The notes beneath the pieces were generated by a model. It was not told the origin of the DNA. It saw only the letters and a list, made by a program, of their open reading frames with translations, and searched no databases. This document shows positions 1 to 44,051 of a DNA stretch of 44,051 nt, in pieces (the stretch's first letter is position 1; the number at the start of each line of letters is the position of its first letter). This stretch comes from a virus. The stretch lies in the IMG/VR virus record IMGVR_UViG_3300029705_000244; one strand, 5' to 3'. The position numbers and the translations under genes are program-made.

Positions 1-127
1 AGAAGTGAAAACCGGGTATTATATGCGTACCCTTGGTTTGTATGCGATTGACCCTGACAAGGGTGAAATCTTATATGCGGTTGCAATCGAAACATCAGGT
101 AACTGTTATATGCCACCTTACAACGGT
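1..127. repeat. Terminal direct repeat identical to 43925-44051: closure overlap of a circular or circularly permuted genome (unit length 43924 bp)
   Basis: Bases 1-127 (agaagtgaaaaccggg...ccttacaacggt) recur exactly as the last 127 bases. The repeat lies inside one continuous reading frame. Confidence 0.9.
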
Positions 128-1570
128 GTTACTGTCACCGCTGCATACATTCAGTTGTATACCACAGTAGGAAATGCAGACAATGTTTCCCTTGAAGTCA
201 ATCCGGGTGCATACGCAACTATTGGTGACATTCAGGCATTGGAAGCAGAAATTGCAGACCTGAAAGCATTTGTTGGTTATACAGATGATGACATTTATGG
301 TGTTGAAGTGGATTTCACAAATAAGAAGTTCACACGTCTTGCGGGTGCGGTAGGTCGCACACCGGGTGAAGGTTTTGATTCTATTCAGGCATTTGGTGGA
401 AGAAAACTTTGTAACCTGACAAATGACGGTAAGGTTGTAGCATATCAGGGTGATGCAGCTTTCACAACCACTGGTAAGTTGACCATGGCGGTTGACCTTA
501 ACCCGGAAGGAACTGAAACACCTGACAGTGCTTTACAGTTTGCAGCGGGTACAATCGTTCAGACTATGGTTGAACAACCAAAGTTCTATTACAAGGTTGT
601 TCCACTTATCACTGAAAAGACAACCAAGGGTTCAATCATCCGCAAGGCACGTTGGTATGTGTCTGATACACCAAAGGCGGGATTCAAACTGCATCCTGAC
701 TTTATTGTGAACGGTGCAGAAAATGATTATTCTTATCATTCCGCATTTGAAGGTTCACTTTGGGATGCTTCTGCAAGTGCTTATATCTTGGATGATGCAC
801 AGGTTGCTGACTTTGCTGCTGATATGCTTGCAAGTATTGCAAATGCAAAACCGCTTTCAGGTCTTACACAGAACGCAACACGTGCAAACGTCAGAAAACT
901 TGCACAGAACCGTGGCACTGGTTGGGAACAGTTGACTGTTCAGGCTGCTTGTGCAACTGAAATCTTGATGTTGATTGAGTATGCAACCTTTAACACACAG
1001 GCTGCTATTGGAAACGGTGCGGTGTTCAAAACTGATGACGGTACTTCCAACATGGCAGAAAATACAGGTGCAACCGTTTCCCTTGGTAATAAGTCCGGGG
1101 CAGTCATCAATGACAACGGTATTCAGATTGTGTCCTATCGTGGTGAAGAAAACCCTTGGGGTAATATTTGGAAGTGGGTTGACGGTATCAATCGACACGT
1201 CACCGCAGATAGAAACATTGTCTATATTGCAGACCATGGTTTCAAGGATGACACAAGTGAAGCACCGTATGAAGATGCGGGAATTTCTGCTTGCACAAAA
1301 GAAGGTTACGTTTCCGCTTTCTGCTATTCAGAAGAATATGATTGGTTATTCATTGCCGGAGAAACAAACGGAAACAGTTCACTTCCTGTTGGTGATTATT
1401 TTTGGAACTATCAGGGAACTGTTTGGACGGTCGCTATACTCTGTGCGGGTTGGACTGATTCTTCTAAGGCGGGCGGTTTCTGTTGGCGTCTTCATTATGG
1501 TTCGGGTAGTCGTTATCGTATTGTTTCGGGTCGGTTGGTGTACCACAAGAGAACCGCAGTTGTTGCGTAA
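2..1570 (+). CDS. Tail fibre protein, C-terminal part (continues 43689-43924 across the circular junction). The C-terminal lectin-like domain carries the DGR variable region.
   Basis: ORF 5..1570 is in frame with 43689..44051 through the 127-bp overlap. It sits after the XkdT/XkdU-like baseplate genes. The C-terminus (...AGWTDSSKAGGFCWRLHYGSGSRYRIVSGRLVY) resembles DGR target C-type-lectin/FGE-like folds and contains the VR. Confidence 0.85.
   Translation, partial: EVKTGYYMRTLGLYAIDPDKGEILYAVAIETSGNCYMPPYNGVTVTAAYIQLYTTVGNADNVSLEVNPGAYATIGDIQALEAEIADLKAFVGYTDDDIYGVEVDFTNKKFTRLAGAVGRTPGEGFDSIQAFGGRKLCNLTNDGKVVAYQGDAAFTTTGKLTMAVDLNPEGTETPDSALQFAAGTIVQTMVEQPKFYYKVVPLITEKTTKGSIIRKARWYVSDTPKAGFKLHPDFIVNGAENDYSYHSAFEGSLWDASASAYILDDAQVADFAADMLASIANAKPLSGLTQNATRANVRKLAQNRGTGWEQLTVQAACATEILMLIEYATFNTQAAIGNGAVFKTDDGTSNMAENTGATVSLGNKSGAVINDNGIQIVSYRGEENPWGNIWKWVDGINRHVTADRNIVYIADHGFKDDTSEAPYEDAGISACTKEGYVSAFCYSEEYDWLFIAGETNGNSSLPVGDYFWNYQGTVWTVAILCAGWTDSSKAGGFCWRLHYGSGSRYRIVSGRLVYHKRTAVVA
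1428..1542 (+). repeat. DGR variable region (VR) at the 3' end of the tail-fibre gene
   Basis: Aligns without gaps to 1688-1802 (offset 260). There are 25 differences and every one is at a position where the template copy has A. Confidence 0.93.
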
Positions 1571-1687
1571 CCGCTGCATAGCAGCATGACTATATATTTG
1601 TAAGGTAGTCAGTTTGAATATACAGATGACATTATCAATTTAACCATGAATGAAACAAATCCTTGCTGAAAAAGTGAAAAAGCAATT

Positions 1688-1802
1688 CAGTCACTAAACT
1701 CAGTGCGAATTGGAATAATTCTTCTAAAGCGGGCAGTTTCTATTGGAATCTTAATAATGGTTCAGGTAATCGTAATCGTAATATTTCAGGTCAGTTAGTA
1801 AA
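1688..1802 (+). repeat. DGR template repeat (TR), non-coding, between the tail-fibre stop and the RT gene
   Basis: 115-bp near-copy of the VR. Read in the VR frame it gives VTKLSANWNNSSKAGSFYWNLNNGSGNRNRNISGQLV with nine AAT (Asn) codons, the typical adenine-rich diversification template. Confidence 0.93.
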
Positions 1803-1809
1803 TGCACTA

Positions 1810-1839
1810 AACACCCCACTTGTTTTCAGGTGGGGTGTT
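1810..1839 (+). other. Perfect 10-bp GC-rich hairpin immediately 3' of the TR (candidate DGR RNA structural element)
   Basis: aacaccccac (1810-1819) / gtggggtgtt (1830-1839) with a 10-nt loop ttgttttcag. It lies in the TR-RT spacer. Confidence 0.6.
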
Positions 1840-1976
1840 GTTATTTCAAAAATCAATGCTTATACCCTGACTACCGTGCCACTTGGCAAAAAAACTTAAA
1901 ATTACAAGACTGTATTAGTAGACCGTCACAAGCGGGTTGAAAGTTCGGTCTTAGTGCATACAAAGAAGGGAACAAC

Positions 1977-3185
1977 GTGAAACGTTATGGCAACATATAT
2001 GACAAAATCTGTTCAATGGAAAACCTTGAACTTGCGTACAAAAATGCAAAGAAAGGAAAAGGGTGGTACAGAGAAGTAAGAGAAATTGAAGCAAATCCAC
2101 AGTATTACTTGGAACTGCTGCAATCCATGTTGAAAAATCACACCTATCAAACATCAGAGTATTCCACATTTATGAAGAAAGACGGTAGGAAAGAAAGGGA
2201 AATATACAAACTTCCATTCTTCCCGGACAGAATCGCACAGTGGGCGGTCTTGCAGATAATTGAACCGCAGTTGTTGGCATACTTCACTGATGACACCTAT
2301 TCCGCAATACCAAACAAAGGTATTCATGCAGCTTTCAGAAAGTTGCGAAAAGCAGTTGATGAACACCCGGAAGAAATGACCTACTGTTTGAAAATCGACT
2401 GCAAGAAATTCTACCCTTCTATTGACCATGACATACTAAAGCAGAAGTTCAGGAAGAAATACAAAGACCCTGAACTATTGTTTTTGATTGATGAAATTAT
2501 TGACAGTATCAACACTTGCCCGGCAACGGAAGAAAACATTGACTTCTATGCGGGACAGGGAAAAGAAATCAAGATTGTGACCGGGGATAACGGTCAGGAA
2601 TTTATTGACGGTATCGGCATACCGATAGGGAATTATTTTTCACAATATGCCGGGAATTTTTATCTGACGGAATTTGACCACTGGATGAAAGAGGTCAAGC
2701 ACGTTAAGCACTATTACAGGTACATGGATGATATTTGTATTTTCGCATCATCCAAAGAAGAACTGCACCAGTTACTTCAAGAAATTGAAGAATATTTGAA
2801 CACTAAGTTGAACTTACGTCTGAAAGGTAACTATCAAATCTTTCCTTCATTCATCAGAGGTGTTGACTTTGTTGGGTATAGGATTTTCTTAGATTATACA
2901 CTGCTTAGAAAATCCACCTGTCAGCAGTTCAAACAGAAGATGACCGCAATCAGGAAGAAAATTGAAAGCGGTCAGGAAATGAACTATTCAGAATGGTGTT
3001 CAATCAATTCATATAAGGGTTGGTTGAAACATTGTGACAGTTACCGATTGACTGAAAAATATATTGTGCCTATTCAGCCTTATGCTGATGAATATTATAA
3101 AAACCATATCAAGGCAAAAAAGAAAAAGAAAGGTGGTAAGAACCATGCAGCAGTACGGAAAAGTGAGAAGTACGCAGCAGCCTGA
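1977..3185 (+). CDS. DGR-type reverse transcriptase
   Basis: GTG start after gaaggg. The N-terminus YGNIYDKICSMENLELAYKNAKKGK is typical. RT motifs include IPIGNYFSQYAGNFYL (the DGR-type IGxxxSQ signature) and YRYMDDICIF (YxDD box). It is adjacent to the TR. Confidence 0.95.
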   Translation: MKRYGNIYDKICSMENLELAYKNAKKGKGWYREVREIEANPQYYLELLQSMLKNHTYQTSEYSTFMKKDGRKEREIYKLPFFPDRIAQWAVLQIIEPQLLAYFTDDTYSAIPNKGIHAAFRKLRKAVDEHPEEMTYCLKIDCKKFYPSIDHDILKQKFRKKYKDPELLFLIDEIIDSINTCPATEENIDFYAGQGKEIKIVTGDNGQEFIDGIGIPIGNYFSQYAGNFYLTEFDHWMKEVKHVKHYYRYMDDICIFASSKEELHQLLQEIEEYLNTKLNLRLKGNYQIFPSFIRGVDFVGYRIFLDYTLLRKSTCQQFKQKMTAIRKKIESGQEMNYSEWCSINSYKGWLKHCDSYRLTEKYIVPIQPYADEYYKNHIKAKKKKKGGKNHAAVRKSEKYAAA

Positions 3186-3411
3186 AACACAGGTCATTGA
3201 TGAATACAGTGTTTGGGTTGCAGAAAACATCACCCCGGTGAGTGAACCGGGAACAGATGAACAACCGGGTTTTGTTGGTTATGAATATGACCTGACCCAG
3301 TACACCAAGGATGAATACATCAAGATGATTGATGAAAAGAACGCAGCCTTGGAAACACAGGTTACTGACACGCAGCTTGCGTTGTGTGAAGTCTATGAAA
3401 TGTTGGCATAA
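3145..3411 (+). CDS. Hypothetical acidic protein downstream of tail fibre/DGR, in the position of xkdW-like tail-fibre accessory genes
   Basis: ATG at 3145 follows aggtgg by 8 nt and overlaps the RT 3' end by 41 nt. Protein MQQYGKVRSTQQPE...DTQLALCEVYEMLA. The longer track ORF from 3064 lacks an RBS. Confidence 0.6.
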   Translation: MQQYGKVRSTQQPETQVIDEYSVWVAENITPVSEPGTDEQPGFVGYEYDLTQYTKDEYIKMIDEKNAALETQVTDTQLALCEVYEMLA

Positions 3412-3428
3412 GGAAGGGGTGAAGAATC

Positions 3429-3536
3429 ATGGCAAAAGTTTATGCTGACCTTATCCGCAAGGGTTTGAAAACGATTGATGACGTGCCGGACAAACTCAAA
3501 GATGAAGTTCAGGCAATCTTGGACGGTGATAACTGA
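3429..3536 (+). CDS. Small conserved-looking phage protein (35 aa), paralog of 3587-3715
   Basis: MAKVYADLIRKGLKTIDDVPDKLKDEVQAILDGDN, with RBS aaggggtgaag upstream. Shares the motif YAxLIxKGxKxxxDVPDxxKxxVxxIL with the next ORF. Below the ORF-track length cut-off. Confidence 0.55.
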   Translation: MAKVYADLIRKGLKTIDDVPDKLKDEVQAILDGDN

Positions 3537-3586
3537 TGCTTAGTCAGATTATCATAAAAATACTATTCAGAAAGGATGTGGGTGAA

Positions 3587-3715
3587 ATGGCAGTAGTTTA
3601 TGCAACTTTGATTGTCAAGGGTAAGAAGTCTTATGCTGACGTACCTGACAGAATCAAGGAACAGGTCAAAGAAATCCTGATTGATTTGGACTGTTCTGAC
3701 CTTGTTACTGAATAA
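3587..3715 (+). CDS. Small phage protein (42 aa), paralog of 3429-3536
   Basis: MAVVYATLIVKGKKSYADVPDRIKEQVKEILIDLDCSDLVTE, with RBS aaaggatgtgggtga upstream. Confidence 0.55.
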   Translation: MAVVYATLIVKGKKSYADVPDRIKEQVKEILIDLDCSDLVTE

Positions 3716-4538: not shown

Positions 4539-4856
4539 ATGGACTACATGACAATTATCAGTCAGGTACTTCTTATTGTGGGAATCCTGACACTTTTTGT
4601 AAACATCATCACAGAGGTAATGAAGAACACCTTTGGAATCTTAAAGGGTTCAAAGGTCATCAACGTGTTTGTGCTGATTCTGTCATTAGTGGCAACAGTT
4701 GGTGTGTTCCTTGCCTACTGGGAGATTAAACAGTTAGAAATCACATGGTACATCATTGCAGCTTTCATTGTTGTGGGCTTTTTGGTTGCCTATGCTGCAA
4801 TGTTTGGGTATGACAAATTACTGAAACATTTTGAGAAAGGGACAGGTGGAAAATAA
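4539..4856 (+). CDS. Holin (about 3 TM segments)
   Basis: 105 aa with three hydrophobic stretches and a charged C-terminus (KLLKHFEKGTGGK). Its stop overlaps the endolysin ATG. Confidence 0.75.
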   Translation: MDYMTIISQVLLIVGILTLFVNIITEVMKNTFGILKGSKVINVFVLILSLVATVGVFLAYWEIKQLEITWYIIAAFIVVGFLVAYAAMFGYDKLLKHFEKGTGGK

Positions 4857-5707
4857 TGAATATTATCGAAAAAATCATCAGCATTGCAAAGGCTGAAATT
4901 GGTACTTGTGAACCGTCAGGTGATGACAAGTATATCAAAGTTTACAATGCACTTTCAGGTGCGGGGTTCAATATGGCGGTTGCGTGGTGTGCAATCTTTG
5001 TGACTTGGGTGATGTATACTGCCGGAGTTGCAAAAAGCATTGTCCCATACTTTGCATCATGTGACATTGGTATGAACTGGTTCAAGAAAAAAGGTCTTTG
5101 GAAAAATGGCAAGGCATACGGTGGAAATTACACACCAAAAAAGGGTGATGTGATTTTCTTTTCATCCAAACATAATCAGAATGATTCAACGCACACTGGT
5201 ATTGTAACAGGTACGTCAGGCAATAAAGTCCATACGATTGAAGGAAACACGTCTGATGCGGTACATGAAAGAACCTATGATATGGGTGATGCGTATATCC
5301 TTGGCTATGGATGCCCTGAATACGGTGTGACGGTTGAAAAGACAGAAGATGATGTTGCAACTTCCGGCTATGAAACGTATACTGTAAAGAAAGGGGATTG
5401 TCTTTGGGGGATTGCTGCAAAGTACCTTGGTAACGGCAACCGCTACAAAGAAATTATGACCCTGAACAGTTTAACCAGTACAACAATCCACACTGGTCTT
5501 GTCCTGATGATTCCGGGAACAAATAAGAAAGCGGAAGAAGCAGCAAGTTCAGTCAGAACCTATACAGTGGTTCGTGGTGATTCCCTTTGGAAGATTGCCA
5601 CAAAACTTCTTGGTAAGGGTTCACGTTACAAGGAAATTATGCAGCTTTCCGGCATCAGTTCCACATTGATTCATGCGGGTCAGGTGCTTACTGTTCCTGA
5701 AAAATAG
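4856..5707 (+). CDS. Endolysin: CHAP-type peptidase/amidase domain plus two LysM repeats
   Basis: N-terminal Cys/His motifs (WCAIFVTWV ... STHTGIV ... EGNTSD). Two LysM repeats (YTVKKGDCLWGIAAKYLGNGNRYKEIMTLN..., YTVVRGDSLWKIATKLLGKGSRYKEIMQLS...). Confidence 0.9.
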   Translation: MNIIEKIISIAKAEIGTCEPSGDDKYIKVYNALSGAGFNMAVAWCAIFVTWVMYTAGVAKSIVPYFASCDIGMNWFKKKGLWKNGKAYGGNYTPKKGDVIFFSSKHNQNDSTHTGIVTGTSGNKVHTIEGNTSDAVHERTYDMGDAYILGYGCPEYGVTVEKTEDDVATSGYETYTVKKGDCLWGIAAKYLGNGNRYKEIMTLNSLTSTTIHTGLVLMIPGTNKKAEEAASSVRTYTVVRGDSLWKIATKLLGKGSRYKEIMQLSGISSTLIHAGQVLTVPEK

Positions 5708-5974: not shown

Positions 5975-5977
5975 TTA
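5944..5977. terminator. Bidirectional rho-independent terminator between the lysis operon and int
   Basis: accccggtgc-atta-gcactggggt, followed by ttttttt on the + strand and preceded by an A-rich run (gatttttg when read on the - strand). Confidence 0.7.
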
Positions 5978-7036
5978 TATCTTATCAATGGCTTCTATCA
6001 GTTGTTGAATCTCAAAATGAGTGTAGACGATTTCTGTTACACCTTGCCCCTTGTGTCCCACAATCTTCTTGATAATCTTATCATCCACCCCGGCAGCAGT
6101 CAGCAGTGTAACAGTGGTGTGGCGGGTGTCATGTGGTCGGTGGTCAGGCATCCCCATTTGGTCAACCATAGGTTTCCAGTAGGAATCATAATAATTGCGG
6201 TATTCAAAGTGTTTTGCATCAGGTGTTGACAGAAGGTATTCACAATCGTTCTTGGTCATCCAGTATTCAAAGTATGGTATCAGTTTTTGTGCAATCGGTA
6301 CTTTTCTAATACCCGCTTCCGTTTTGGATGCAATCACATCAAACCACCGTTCTTCAAGGTTCACGTTCTCTTTTTTCAGGTCAAGCAGTTCACTGATTCG
6401 TACCCCGGTATAAATAAGCATCAGGACAACGGTGAAGTATTCATTGGTATCTTTCCACTTCCAAACCTTTGTGATTTCATCAGTGCTGAACGGTTTCCTG
6501 TCATATTTGTTTGGATTGCGGTCTTTGTACTGGTTTATATCAACGTATTGTGCATAGTCCTTTGCACAAATGTCATTCTGCATTGCGAACTTATAAAGCA
6601 TGGTAAACAGAACTTTGAGTTTCCGCAGTGTTGGGTAATTCTTGCCGGAATCATCAACCACACCTTGCAGATGACTTTTTCTAATATCATTGAACCGCAT
6701 GGACTTGATTGGTTCACAAAGAAGGTATGAAGCATTATACCCCTGAATATTGGACTTGGAAACCTTTGGGTAATGTTCCGCAGACCATTTTTCAAAGACT
6801 TCCGCAAAGGTGATTTTATTGGCATCCATATCATACGGATTTTCATTGAAGTGTGCCAAAGCAACCAGTGCTTCACTTTGGGTTTCATAGTAACCCAAGT
6901 ATTTGTATTTCCAGTGAGTTCTTCCGTCCTTTCCTTCTTTTCTTGACACGGTGATTCTGACCGCCCAAGGTTTTCTTCTGTTTCCGGGCAGTTTGTAAAC
7001 TGACCCATAACCGTTTGGTAATTTCATTGTATTCAT
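5975..7036 (-). CDS. int: Tyrosine integrase (site-specific recombinase, phage integrase family)
   Basis: Catalytic motifs TGVRISELLDL, HDTRHTTVT (HxxR) and GH...IVYTH (Tyr). The N-terminal arm-binding-like domain has PNGYGSVYKLPGNRRKPW. An alternative start at 7027 (MKLPNG) has better SD spacing. Confidence 0.93.
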   Translation of the reverse strand: MNTMKLPNGYGSVYKLPGNRRKPWAVRITVSRKEGKDGRTHWKYKYLGYYETQSEALVALAHFNENPYDMDANKITFAEVFEKWSAEHYPKVSKSNIQGYNASYLLCEPIKSMRFNDIRKSHLQGVVDDSGKNYPTLRKLKVLFTMLYKFAMQNDICAKDYAQYVDINQYKDRNPNKYDRKPFSTDEITKVWKWKDTNEYFTVVLMLIYTGVRISELLDLKKENVNLEERWFDVIASKTEAGIRKVPIAQKLIPYFEYWMTKNDCEYLLSTPDAKHFEYRNYYDSYWKPMVDQMGMPDHRPHDTRHTTVTLLTAAGVDDKIIKKIVGHKGQGVTEIVYTHFEIQQLIEAIDKI

Positions 7037-18907: not shown

Positions 18908-18916
18908 GTGAAAAGG

Positions 18917-20797
18917 ATGCTTTACAAAGGTTATGTTGAAACCAAGGGGAAACAACCCCTTGAAAAACTGAAAAACAGAACCAAGTGGAAAACCTATGAT
19001 GAAGTGAAGAACTTAAACGGTTATGGTGGTGTTCTTGCTGATGATACTATCCTGATTGACATTGATGACCCTGAACAGTCTGAAATGATGATGAACATTG
19101 TGGAAGAATATCAGTTGAATTGTAAAGTGTTGTGTACCAGTAGGGGCAGACACTTCCTGTTCAAGAATACTAAGGTGAACCGCAACCGTACACACGCAGC
19201 ACTGGCAGTTGGTTTGACCGCTGACATTAAGGTTGGGACACGTCTTTCTTATGAGGTCATCAAGATAGACGGTGAAGAAAGGTTTTGTGAATGGGATGTT
19301 GAACCGGGTGAAAAGTATGATGAACTTCCAAAGTATTTCTTCCCGGTCAAAGCGGTCACAGATTTTGTTGATATGGATGCCGGGGACGGAAGAAATCAGG
19401 CATTGTTCAACTACATATTGACCCTACAAAGTAATGATTTCACAGTGGAAGAAACAAGGGAGTGCATCAGAATCCTGAACAGGTTTGTACTGAAAGAACC
19501 ACTGTCAGATGATGAACTGGAAGTGATTCTTAGGGATGAAGCATTTCAGAAACCAGTGTTTTTCCTTGGTGCAACCTTCCTGTTTGATAAGTTTGCAACG
19601 TTCCTGAAAAATAATGGTCACGTGGTGAAAATCAACGGTCAGTTGCATATCTATCGGGACGGTATCTATATCAACGGTTACAAGGAAATTGAAGCGGAAA
19701 TGATTCAGCACATTCCGAACCTGAAAAAGACCCAAAGGCGGGAAGTTCTTGACTACATGGAATTGATTGTTGATGAAGTCCCGGCAGCAGATGCCCGCTA
19801 TATAGCATTTAACAACGGTGTGTATGATGTGGTTGAAGGTGAACTGAAACCGTTCAGTACAGAAATTGTTGTCACAAATCAAATCCCTTGGAACTATGTG
19901 CCGGATGCCTACAATGAACTGGCAGATAAGACCTTGACCAAGTTGTCATGTGGTGATGTAACAATCAGGGCATTGTTGGAAGAATGTATTGGATATTGCT
20001 TTTACAGAAGAAATGAACTGGGTAAGGCTTTCATCCTGACTGGTGATAAGTCCAACGGTAAAAGTACCTTTTTGGATGTACTGAAACATATTCTTGGTGA
20101 AGGGAATATTTCAGCCCTTGACCTGAAAGAACTGGGTGACCGTTTCAACACATCAATGATGTTCGGAAAACTGGCAAATATCGGTGATGATATTGGTGAT
20201 GATTTCCTTCAAGGGTCACAGGTCAGTATCTTCAAAAAGATTGTCACTGGTAACAGAATCAAGGCAGAACGAAAAGGACAAGACCCCTTTGAGTTTAACC
20301 CCTATATCAAATTACTGTTCGCAGCAAATGATATACCAAGAATGAAGGACAAGACTGGTGCAGTGCTTAGAAGATTGGTCATCATACCGTTCAATGCTTC
20401 ATTCAGTAAGAGTGACCCGGACTATGACCCTTTTATCAAGTACAAGTTAGTATCACAGGAAGCCATTGAATATATGATACAGTTGGGTATTGCCGGACTG
20501 ATTAGAATTTTGGAAAACAATGAGTTCACCAAGTCTGAAAAAGTGCAGAATCAGTTGGATGAATATGAAGAAGAAAACAATCCTATCATTGCATTTATTG
20601 CTGATACTGGGGTTGATATGATTGAGGATGAACCGACAAATGAAGTTTACAAACGTTATCAGGTATTTTGTGCTGACAATTCAATGACCCCTATGTCAAA
20701 TATCGTATTCAGTAAGCAGATAAACAAGCGGTTGGGACTGGAAATTAACGTTGTAAAACTGAACGGAAAGACAAGAAGAATATTCAGAAAAGTATAA
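18917..20797 (+). CDS. Bifunctional primase-polymerase / D5-P4-type helicase
   Basis: Prim-pol N-terminus (ILIDIDD, SRGRHFLF). C-terminal P-loop LTGDKSNGKSTFLDVL plus a Walker B-like stretch (LANIGDD). Confidence 0.88.
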   Translation: MLYKGYVETKGKQPLEKLKNRTKWKTYDEVKNLNGYGGVLADDTILIDIDDPEQSEMMMNIVEEYQLNCKVLCTSRGRHFLFKNTKVNRNRTHAALAVGLTADIKVGTRLSYEVIKIDGEERFCEWDVEPGEKYDELPKYFFPVKAVTDFVDMDAGDGRNQALFNYILTLQSNDFTVEETRECIRILNRFVLKEPLSDDELEVILRDEAFQKPVFFLGATFLFDKFATFLKNNGHVVKINGQLHIYRDGIYINGYKEIEAEMIQHIPNLKKTQRREVLDYMELIVDEVPAADARYIAFNNGVYDVVEGELKPFSTEIVVTNQIPWNYVPDAYNELADKTLTKLSCGDVTIRALLEECIGYCFYRRNELGKAFILTGDKSNGKSTFLDVLKHILGEGNISALDLKELGDRFNTSMMFGKLANIGDDIGDDFLQGSQVSIFKKIVTGNRIKAERKGQDPFEFNPYIKLLFAANDIPRMKDKTGAVLRRLVIIPFNASFSKSDPDYDPFIKYKLVSQEAIEYMIQLGIAGLIRILENNEFTKSEKVQNQLDEYEEENNPIIAFIADTGVDMIEDEPTNEVYKRYQVFCADNSMTPMSNIVFSKQINKRLGLEINVVKLNGKTRRIFRKV

Positions 20798-20895: not shown

Positions 20896-22164
20896 ATGCC
20901 TGATTATATATACACTGAAAATGAAGTAAGAAAAATGTGGCAGCGGTCTTATGGTGAACAGTTAGGTGTTGCACAAGCAAAATGTATTGAAGCAATCGTG
21001 AGAACAGAAGGAAACCTTGCAGTATCGTTCAGTGGTGGAAAGGATTCCGCAGTACTGCTTTATTTAATGGCTGAAATGTGGGTAGTCACTTATCCTGATA
21101 AACCCCTTGAAGTTATGTTTGCGAACACAACAAATGAATTTGCTTGTATGCCGGGATATGTAAAGTTTTATTGTGCGTGGATTGAACAGAAGTTCAACAT
21201 AAAAATACACCTTACCCCGGTACATGGTGATAAGAGTTATTTTCAGGTCACTGATGAAGTTGGTCTACCATTTGTAAGTAAGAAGGTTTCACGCATGGTG
21301 AGAGATTGTAAAAAAGTCCTTCGTGGTTTGGGGTTGACTTATGCTGATATCAAGGATTTATTACCGCAACATTATACAGATAGTCATTATGATGAATTGG
21401 TTGCATCTGCCGATAAATTGCGTGAACTTGGTGTGTCAAATACGGTTATCTTATATCTAACTAAGGTTACCAGTGATAACAAAACCAGTCAGCAGCGGTT
21501 TTTACCAGTACAGTACAGACCATTGATTGATGCCCCTTTTGAATTGTCGGAAGAATGTTGTAAGTTCCTGAAAAAAGACCCTATAAAATACGCAAGTAAA
21601 GATATAGGTCAGTTGTTACCTGTTGTTGGTGAAATGGCTTGTGATTCTAAGGACAGAATGAACGCATACCGTCAGACTGGATGCAATATGTTTGACGGTA
21701 GCAGACCAAAATCAAAACCTTTGGGTGCAGCAACAGAGCAGACAATCTTGCGTTTCATCTATGAAGAAAAAATACCATGTTCACCTGTTTATGGTGAATG
21801 TATCTATGATGAAGAAACCGACACATATAAGTTCACCGGGGAACAAAGAACCGGGTGCAAATTATGCGGTTTTGGTTTGAAATTTGACCCTGAAAGATAT
21901 GTTAGATTACAAAAATTAGAACCAAATGTTGTAACCTTTGCCTTTACTGATAGGGATAGGGGTGGGTTGGGGTACATGGAAGTATGTACTTTCCTGAATG
22001 AACATTGTGATATGAATATTGCTATTCCTGAAATAGAACAGGGTTATTATGAAAAAAGAGCATTGGCATATAAAGCAAGAAAAGAGGAAGAAAATGAATG
22101 TGAGAAATCCAAAGTTAAACGCAGAAGGGTACGCAGACCCAACCGCTTACATGGGGATGCGTGA
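20896..22164 (+). CDS. PAPS-reductase-family PP-loop enzyme (DndC-like ATP pyrophosphatase fold)
   Basis: AVSFSGGKDSAVLLYL (PP-loop SGGKDS). C-terminal Cys cluster GCKLCGFG. Confidence 0.8.
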   Translation: MPDYIYTENEVRKMWQRSYGEQLGVAQAKCIEAIVRTEGNLAVSFSGGKDSAVLLYLMAEMWVVTYPDKPLEVMFANTTNEFACMPGYVKFYCAWIEQKFNIKIHLTPVHGDKSYFQVTDEVGLPFVSKKVSRMVRDCKKVLRGLGLTYADIKDLLPQHYTDSHYDELVASADKLRELGVSNTVILYLTKVTSDNKTSQQRFLPVQYRPLIDAPFELSEECCKFLKKDPIKYASKDIGQLLPVVGEMACDSKDRMNAYRQTGCNMFDGSRPKSKPLGAATEQTILRFIYEEKIPCSPVYGECIYDEETDTYKFTGEQRTGCKLCGFGLKFDPERYVRLQKLEPNVVTFAFTDRDRGGLGYMEVCTFLNEHCDMNIAIPEIEQGYYEKRALAYKARKEEENECEKSKVKRRRVRRPNRLHGDA

Positions 22165-43688: not shown

Positions 43689-44051
43689 ATGGCAGAATTT
43701 TCAAAATTAGTCATTACACAAAACGGTCAGGCACTTATGGCAAAGATGATTGCCGGGACTGGTAACATTGAGTTCACAAAGATTTGTGCATCAAGTACCC
43801 AGTACACTGAAAATCAGTTGTCAGCCTTGACCGCACTTAGTAACGTGAAACAGACAACCCTTGTTTCCAAGGTTACAAGAACAAATGAGGTTGCAATCAA
43901 GGTTGAAGGTGCGTATACCAACGCAGAAGTGAAAACCGGGTATTATATGCGTACCCTTGGTTTGTATGCGATTGACCCTGACAAGGGTGAAATCTTATAT
44001 GCGGTTGCAATCGAAACATCAGGTAACTGTTATATGCCACCTTACAACGGT
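43689..44051 (+). CDS. Tail fibre protein, N-terminal part (tail-collar-fibre-like). Continues at 2-1570 across the circular junction.
   Basis: ATG 43689 after aggaaatggtga. MAEFSKLVITQNGQALMAKMIAG... The reading frame is open to the window end and is identical to bases 1-127. Confidence 0.85.
   Translation, partial: MAEFSKLVITQNGQALMAKMIAGTGNIEFTKICASSTQYTENQLSALTALSNVKQTTLVSKVTRTNEVAIKVEGAYTNAEVKTGYYMRTLGLYAIDPDKGEILYAVAIETSGNCYMPPYNG
43925..44051. repeat. Terminal direct repeat (copy of 1-127)
   Basis: Exact 127-nt identity with the window start. Confidence 0.9.

Follow-up and report, generated by a model that had tools for sequence, protein, structure and literature searches.

The diversity-generating retroelement (DGR) of Bordetella phage BPP-1 is organized as mtd-avd-TR-brt, and its target is the tip of a tail fiber, which carries the variable repeat (VR) at the C terminus within a C-type-lectin fold. 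The differences between the template repeat (TR) and the VR are restricted to adenines of the TR, and the G-rich VR end, the initiation of mutagenic homing (IMH) site, corresponds to an A-containing end of the TR (IMH*). The accessory protein Avd is essential in BPP-1, and Avd proteins are poorly conserved. In the RNA of the BPP-1 ribonucleoprotein, determined by cryo-electron microscopy, an Avd-binding stem-loop is located right after the TR and a TR:Sp duplex pairs template with primer (bioRxiv 10.1101/2023.10.23.563531). The same RNA contains an avd:Sp duplex, termed “cPRT Stop,” which joins the regions upstream and downstream of the TR and adjoins a tetraloop hairpin and A-minor adenines, and a long stem-loop that binds the reverse transcriptase (RT), bRT (bioRxiv 10.1101/2023.10.23.563531). 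By contrast, Wu et al. (2018; PMC5758913) found no accessory gene in 29% of the 372 DGRs in their survey, described an avd-less lineage, and proposed an Avd-independent variant of retrohoming. Furthermore, Weinberg et al. (2017; PMC5737381) reported the RNA motifs RT-1 to RT-19 adjoining RT genes; they attributed only RT-10, that of BPP-1, to a DGR and, by way of speculation, viewed many of the RT-n motifs as possible retron RNAs. This report is focused on IMG/VR virus record IMGVR_UViG_3300029705_000244, a DNA stretch of 44,051 nucleotides that is hereafter referred to as the window, which very probably carries a complete Avd-less DGR (target-TR-RT) in an approximately 43.9-kb temperate contractile-tailed phage of gut Lachnospiraceae.

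By cassette order, and not by RT tree, this locus resembles the Avd-less “Architecture A” DGRs (TR-RT core; lineage 3 of Wu et al., 2018, PMC5758913), which comprise target, TR, and RT without an accessory gene; in this comparison, the VR class of the target is CLec1-like by motif. The assignment is directly supported by the paired repeats with their A-only differences, the type of RT, the lectin fold of the target, the turnover of VRs on a near-constant TR, and RNA helices established by covariation. Together, these sequence comparisons indicate a bona fide DGR, recently active, that diversifies the lectin-fold tip of a tail fiber in an abundant, uncultured family of Lachnospiraceae prophages. 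The core features of the cassette, whose order is target, TR, and RT, are as follows.

43689-44051, plus strand: 5′ part of the target gene, continuing at window position 1 via a 127-bp overlap (601 amino acids on the circularized sequence)
1-1570, plus strand: remainder of the target gene (stop codon 1568-1570), encoding a tail protein right after baseplate J and Mu-Gp48-like genes
1428-1542, plus strand: VR, the portion seen varying among relatives being approximately 1436-1523
1688-1802, plus strand: TR, with 37 adenines and nine AAT codons in the target frame
1977-3185, plus strand: DGR RT (402 amino acids, intact; RVT_1, bRT, and phrog matches)

Repeat pair, reverse transcriptase, and turnover of the variable repeat

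The VR and TR align without gaps at an offset of 260 with 25 mismatches in 115 nt, and recomputation of the alignment reproduced exactly what an initial annotation of this DNA had reported. The edges of the homology are sharp, since the preceding positions 1427 and 1687 are A and T, respectively, and the sequences are unrelated from 1543 on. The mismatches are located at 25 of the 37 TR adenines and at none of the 78 non-adenine positions; the absence of non-adenine mismatches, for which the initial annotation had itself named recomputation as the refuting check, is thereby borne out. From TR to VR, the changes comprise 16 A>G, six A>T, and three A>C, and the hypergeometric probability that all 25 mismatches hit A is 1.5e-16. 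The direction is asymmetric, as the TR contains 37 A and the VR, which is rich in G and T, contains 12.

The VR covers codons 555-593 of the 601-residue target. In the target frame, the TR comprises nine AAT, two AAA, two AGT, one ACT, one TAT, and one ATT codon. Approximately 17 codons are recodable, with a theoretical repertoire of approximately 1e16 peptides. The count of nine AAT codons given in the initial annotation is correct, and its description of the TR as a classic DGR template holds to that extent. However, the two AAA codons at 1696-1698 (residue 558) and 1726-1728 (residue 568) can give rise to stop codons upon adenine mutagenesis, and the template is therefore not purely of the stop-proof AAY design. 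The use of AAT codons rather than AAC, together with the two AAA codons, also distinguishes this TR from that of BPP-1. No second VR was found on either strand of the window in a scan with the TR in which A positions were ignored, and exact scans for other copies of the TR or VR (A as N) in viral contigs, and with a shorter pattern in metagenome contigs, yielded no match.

The TR starts 118 nt past the target gene, and no open reading frame (ORF) is present in this 118-nt VR-TR gap or in the stretch that separates the TR from the RT gene. The RT matches RVT_1 of Pfam at 4e-19 and phrog_1423 at 8e-129, and both DGR-type signatures that the initial annotation named for this adjacent ORF, IGxxxSQ and YMDD, are present as IGNYFSQ at residues 217-223 (2625-2645) and YMDD at residues 249-252 (2721-2732). 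Its best relative in the PDB is bRT of the Bordetella phage (8ub7, 6.7e-33), whereas group II intron and retron-type RTs are found at 1e-13 or worse. Unlike bRT, the RT of the window is 74 residues longer, with an insertion of approximately 33 residues between two aligned blocks and a basic lysine-rich C-terminal tail. Among GenBank phages, the nearest RTs are that of Psychrobacillus phage Perkons (51% identity) and those of crAss-like phages (40-44%), and no deposited phage RT is more than 52% identical to the RT of the window.

Relatives were gathered through proteins: an RT search yielded 80 IMG/VR loci at 50-83% identity, and all 80 possess a homologue of the TR and spacer right before the RT. 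A VR is callable 204-272 nt upstream in approximately 70 of the 80 loci, with 16-30 A mismatches and 0-2 others. In a sister lineage, one and the same TR occurs in 35 loci, which have 34 distinct VRs that vary at 27 of the 36 A columns versus seven of the 79 non-A columns. The closest tail-fiber cluster (95% identity, 44 members), a cluster at the 90% level, deviates from the window mainly at TR-A codons. DNA of the closest relatives was obtained for six members of that cluster, represented by ten loci (L081-L090), of which L081 matches the window at 96.6% identity along 5.5 kb. Their TRs are the same as that of the window or differ by 1-2 nt, seven distinct VRs are present, and these VRs vary at 25 of the 37 TR-A columns versus two of the 78 non-A columns. 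Of the two variable non-A columns, one (window position 1760) reflects a G/T polymorphism in the TR, and every VR matches its own TR there, in the direction in which information is expected to flow in a DGR, from TR to VR. Since relatives of 96-97% identity carry different VRs with TRs at most 2 nt apart, the turnover is recent on the lineage timescale. Natural diversification between samples thus appears to be confined almost wholly to TR-adenine positions.

Protein clustering provides a separate observation. The target is matched by more than 7,900 protein clusters, and the 90% cluster of P0016, a tail fiber of 75% identity, contains 14,362 distinct member sequences; such cluster inflation is to be expected of an abundant phage in which a single gene is repeatedly rewritten by a DGR.

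The lectin-fold tip of the target tail fiber

The target belongs to phrog_5302, annotated as “tail protein” (3e-156), its N-terminal part resembles tail-fiber phrogs, and homologues are full length at 593-611 residues. The location of the VR at the receptor-binding end of a tail fiber, as originally suggested, agrees with the C-terminal position of the VR in this phrog_5302 protein and with the position of its gene after baseplate genes. Searched on its own, the target protein matched nothing in Pfam, in NCBIfam, or among PDB sequences, and structure prediction was directed at the following domain.

803-1567, plus strand: C-type-lectin/formylglycine-generating enzyme (FGE)-like receptor-binding domain, the C-terminal 255 residues, which hold the VR (AlphaFold2 and Foldseek)

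AlphaFold2 applied to a 521-residue ORF with a shallow alignment (73-95% identity) gave a pLDDT of 40, and an alignment of diverse domains was used instead. With this 40-sequence alignment (the query and 39 diverse domains), the 255-residue domain was modeled at a pLDDT of 93.6 and a pTM of 0.90. In Foldseek searches against the PDB, the first match was TaqVP of Thermus aquaticus (5vf4; E 2e-7, probability 1.0, TMq 0.50-0.54), followed by five BPP-1 Mtd variants (1yu0-1yu4; probability 0.63-0.93) and then by other C-type lectins and FGE-like proteins. The C-type-lectin fold that had been proposed for the C-terminal region is thus recovered by modeling, and the variable codons (residues 557-587) are located in its final strands and loops.

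The likeness to known variable proteins resides at different levels. Similarly to BPP-1, the target is a tail-fiber tip in which a C-type-lectin fold carries the VR at the C terminus; its sequence, however, shows no detectable similarity to Mtd. Likewise, TaqVP, a DGR variable protein (PDB 5VF4), is the best structural match of the C-terminal domain, although the two are 14-15% identical and TaqVP is a cellular protein rather than a phage fiber. A sequence profile of the domain matched only TaqVP in the PDB, at an E value of 2.4 that is not significant, with the GNxW motif and the VR aligned. Because the target has no PDB sequence match and its profile reaches only TaqVP at this value, the likeness to Mtd is one of fold only. 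In the BFVD, the same fold is present in tail collar fiber proteins of gut phages, including crAss-like phages (TM 0.77-0.96). The DGR-bearing phages of the human gut, such as crAss-like phages and Hankyphage, have fiber or collar proteins that end in this fold, with BFVD TM scores of 0.77-0.85 to cr55_1, cr6_1, cr85_1, and cr7_1; the phage of the window nevertheless belongs to another lineage (43.9 kb, temperate, with an integrase, in Lachnospiraceae) and has other hosts. The domain is present in 2502 representative clusters, and among 140 aligned representatives it is mostly at most three residues from the C terminus of proteins of many different lengths.

RNA helices around the template repeat and the ends of the variable repeat

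The RNA was analyzed with 23 diverse spacers by means of an RNAalifold consensus, pair counts, and a complementarity search across the TR. Folding energies of single sequences are not significant against shuffles (1525-1625 as DNA, z -1.05; 1670-1980 as RNA, z -1.90), and the structural claims therefore rest on covariation. The elements are listed below, the parts of RT-17 being defined by pair counts.

1604-1612, plus strand: 5′ arm of the bracketing duplex (GGTAGTCAG), pairing with 1867-1875
1867-1875, plus strand: 3′ arm of the bracketing duplex (CTGACTACC), pairing with 1604-1612
1812-1837, plus strand: P1 stem-loop (9-bp GC-rich helix; 3-5 pair types at each position), located directly 3′ of the TR and succeeded by a U-rich run
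1872-1963, plus strand: Rfam RT-17 RNA (RF03020), 63.6 bits versus a gathering score of 40.4, full length (model positions 1-95)
1877-1888, plus strand: P2 tetraloop hairpin of RT-17 (4 bp)
1889-1895, plus strand: A-run of RT-17 (seven A)
1907-1916 and 1942-1952, plus strand: P3 of RT-17
1923-1935, plus strand: inner P4 of RT-17
1802-1810, plus strand: 5′ strand of the candidate template:primer duplex, AUGCAC[UAA], starting exactly at the end of the TR/VR homology
1951-1959, plus strand: 3′ strand of the candidate template:primer duplex, [UUA]GUGCAU, followed by a conserved ACA and the ribosome-binding site of the RT gene

The duplex that brackets the TR occurs in 14 distinct covarying variants of 7-12 bp at homologous positions in approximately 78 loci, and the DGR RNA thus extends at least to 1604 on the upstream side of the TR. 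The P1 stem-loop occupies the position of the Avd-binding stem-loop of BPP-1. A terminator scan flagged a hairpin in this region (1810-1849) with a stem of 13 pairs and a U-rich tail, although this hairpin is spanned by covarying helices; it may limit read-through into the RT gene. The RT-17 match recurs at the corresponding position in 17 of 20 relatives and covers no more than the 3′ two-thirds of a larger structure, which pairs with both sides of the TR. It occupies the spacer between TR and RT, as RT-10 does in BPP-1, although the spacer RNA here matches RT-17 and not RT-10.

In the candidate template:primer duplex, all 23 sequences have canonical pairs at the six core positions (1802-1807 with 1954-1959), and the duplex is further supported by one double compensatory change (L080), wobbles (L073 and L075), and a covarying extension. 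A primer strand at the BPP-1 position, between P1 and the bracketing duplex, was considered and rejected: only complementarities of 5-7 nt were found there, at inconsistent positions. In the absence of consistent complementarity at that position, the 3′ GUGCAU strand is preferred. In BPP-1, the primer strand precedes the RT-binding stem, whereas the candidate strand here follows an RT-binding-like stem; moreover, the TR/VR homology here stops at the duplex and does not extend past it as in BPP-1. In other respects, the TR-bracketing duplex with its nearby tetraloop hairpin and A-run, the stem-loop after the TR, the long stem-loop before the RT gene, and the duplex at the 3′ edge of the TR all resemble the BPP-1 RNA. 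These helices probably correspond to the same kinds of elements as those of the BPP-1 DGR RNA in a partly different order, with functions that we infer.

The repeat ends and the region after the VR contain the following sequences, the second of which was defined by comparing the repeats and the relatives.

1526-1542, plus strand: candidate IMH (CGGGTCGGTTGGTGTA), richer in G than its TR counterpart and constant in all relatives, including synonymous sites
1786-1802, plus strand: IMH* counterpart in the TR (CAGGTCAGTTAGTAAA)
1573-1585, plus strand: inverted repeat GCTGC-ATA-GCAGC just past the stop codon, a weak candidate for a post-IMH hairpin

TR positions 101, 106, 110, 113, and 114 (VR 1528, 1533, 1537, 1540, and 1541) are G, G, G, G, and T, respectively, in all VRs of both lineages, three of these five fixed changes are synonymous, and the VR terminus CGG(G/C)GGTCGGTTGGTGTA is kept throughout the family. 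Because they are identical in every relative of both lineages, approximately five of the 25 differences look like fixed markers rather than products of mutagenesis. The G-rich end of the VR and the A-containing end of the TR recall BPP-1, and the 17-nt repeat ends are consistent with an IMH (VR) and IMH* (TR) pair in the BPP-1 sense (PMC5758913), although they lack a 14-nt G/C run as in BPP-1. Hairpins of 5-6 bp comparable to the GC-rich inverted repeat at 1573-1585 occur in some relatives only and are absent from the main lineage. A post-VR cruciform was therefore rejected, the hairpin not being conserved in the family; a GC-rich inverted repeat downstream of the IMH is present in only 34% of DGRs (PMC5758913).

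Phage context, competing explanations, and significance

A 127-bp direct repeat joins the ends of the window (1-127 is identical to 43925-44051), and an ORF continues in frame across it; the contig is therefore circular with a true length of 43,924 bp. Downstream of the cassette are CD1375-like ORFs, membrane proteins, a CHAP-LysM endolysin (4856-5707), and a tyrosine integrase on the opposite strand (5975-7036), and farther downstream are helix-turn-helix repressor-like genes, replication genes (SNF2 helicase and D5-like primase), and a small terminase. In relatives, the genes upstream of the target encode Sheath_initiator, Baseplate_J, and Phage_Mu_Gp48 proteins. This gene content, including the integrase and the baseplate and sheath genes of relatives, therefore indicates a temperate contractile-tailed phage. 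Relatives of the RT are encoded in Lachnospiraceae genomes, namely those of Clostridium sp. OF09-36 and OF03-18AA, Acetatifactor aquisgranensis DSM 110981, and Hominiventricola filiformis CLA-AA-H276, and a megablast search of 1-3600 against GenBank phages gave no match. One further ORF adjoins the RT gene.

3145-3411, plus strand: acidic ORF of 88 residues, overlapping the 3′ end of the RT gene by 41 nt; phrog_18126 (unknown function)

A homologue of this ORF is located directly 3′ of the RT in 89 of the 89 family loci with room for it, and it has no Pfam match and none in GenBank phages. It is possibly a gene of the phage tail module or a DGR accessory factor; it was not called as Avd, as it is acidic and without a family of known function.

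Several side observations concern the neighborhood and the related loci. Two tandem small ORFs between the DGR and the lysis genes (3429-3536, 35 residues; 3536-3715, 59 residues) match the CD1375-like family, and a PAPS-reductase-domain protein of 422 residues (20896-22164) lies in the replication module beside the D5-like primase/helicase (18908-20797). In two related loci (L011, 740-1015; L096, 887-1135), RAGATH-8 RNA (RF02687; 306 and 136 bits, respectively) lies approximately 3 kb upstream of the RT; it is absent from the window. In another related locus (L068, 7564-7778), a group II intron D1-D4 domain match of 87.7 bits is found downstream of the DGR.

The following observations weigh against a complete and active DGR in the window. 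No Avd, HRDC, or other known accessory gene was found, including no Avd Pfam match among the ORFs of 3145-24644; unlike the BPP-1 cassette, this one is without an avd gene. No promoter for the TR RNA was detected, nor was a sigma-70-like one on the plus strand between the stop codon of the target and the TR. The GC-rich inverted repeat after the VR is not conserved across the family, and the candidate primer strand is placed 3′ of the RT-binding-like stem, which differs from its position in BPP-1. Finally, the exact VR of the window is also found in two metagenome contigs, L084 and L085 (JGI 3300024303 and 3300018493, respectively); the TR of L084 is also identical to that of the window, and L085 stops short of the TR. 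The consensus VR is therefore stable over some samples and not constantly in flux.

The identical VRs of these two contigs and the missing Avd would fit a fossil DGR, which was active in ancestors of the family and no longer diversifies here, its VR being frozen and kept by selection. This explanation is nevertheless improbable, since the window has a full-length RT in which every catalytic motif is present, along with an intact TR and intact RNA helices, since relatives that share 96-97% nucleotide identity differ in the VR with TRs at most 2 nt apart, and since Avd-less DGRs are a recognized class comprising 29% of DGRs (PMC5758913). That the RT belongs to another class, such as a retron, a group II intron maturase, or a defense DRT/Abi system, and merely adjoins an unrelated duplication of a gene end is very improbable. 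Matches in NCBIfam to group II intron RT, Drt3a, Drt2, and retron RT models exist, and the speculation of Weinberg et al. that many RT-n motifs are retron RNAs points in the same direction; however, the NCBIfam scores are far below the cut-offs (e.g., 110 versus 300 bits), the closest solved relative is bRT, and IGxxxSQ is present. The duplication moreover differs at A only and turns over at A in relatives, no intron domains flank the ORF, and there is no msr/msd-like arrangement. A chance or recombinational repeat, in which a tandem duplication diverged in the ordinary way within an AT-rich genome, has nothing in its favor beyond the existence of the repeat, and its probability is negligible: it is already refuted by the A-only mismatches (P of approximately 1.5e-16), by the asymmetric direction between the A-rich TR (37 A) and the G/T-rich VR (12 A), and by the independent occurrence of the same pattern in approximately 70 related loci.

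Under the preferred explanation, a complete Avd-less DGR, an RNA spanning at least 1604-1962 would contain the TR, and the long-range helices together with the RT-17 fold would place the TR's 3′ edge (1801/1802) within a short duplex formed with the conserved GUGCAU at 1954-1959. The RT encoded downstream would then copy the TR into cDNA with misincorporation opposite template adenines, and the cDNA would replace the VR (1428-1542) at the 3′ end of the tail-fiber gene, with the G-rich IMH-like end (1526-1542) marking the recipient. Approximately 17 recoded codons in the C-terminal part of the lectin domain could thereby let the phage population sample new receptor specificities. By analogy with BPP-1, we infer priming in cis at the duplex, a role of the bracketing duplex as a stop, homing directed by the IMH, and an effect on tropism. 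A more specific proposal, which we regard as conceivable but rather doubtful, is that mutagenic retrohoming is Avd-independent here because the RT-17 RNA and the two long-range duplexes, together with the longer RT or the 88-residue ORF, replace the Avd scaffold; the primer strand would have moved to the 3′ end of the spacer, and the Avd-type stem-loop would have been retained.

The system is an ordinary representative of a known type, and it leaves the understanding of DGRs unchanged. Its additions are modest: the placement of RT-17 inside a DGR, an RNA architecture supported by covariation, and an Avd-site-like stem-loop kept where no Avd was found. The Rfam orphan motif RT-17 thereby gains a concrete context, and the TR, the structured RNA, and one RT constitute a compact Avd-less system of approximately 1.6 kb, the RNA elements of which can be compared one-to-one with the BPP-1 ribonucleoprotein. 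For the phages themselves, the locus provides a clean natural case in which a very abundant family of Lachnospiraceae prophages appears to re-tip its tail fiber, with variation that is traceable across public metagenomes.

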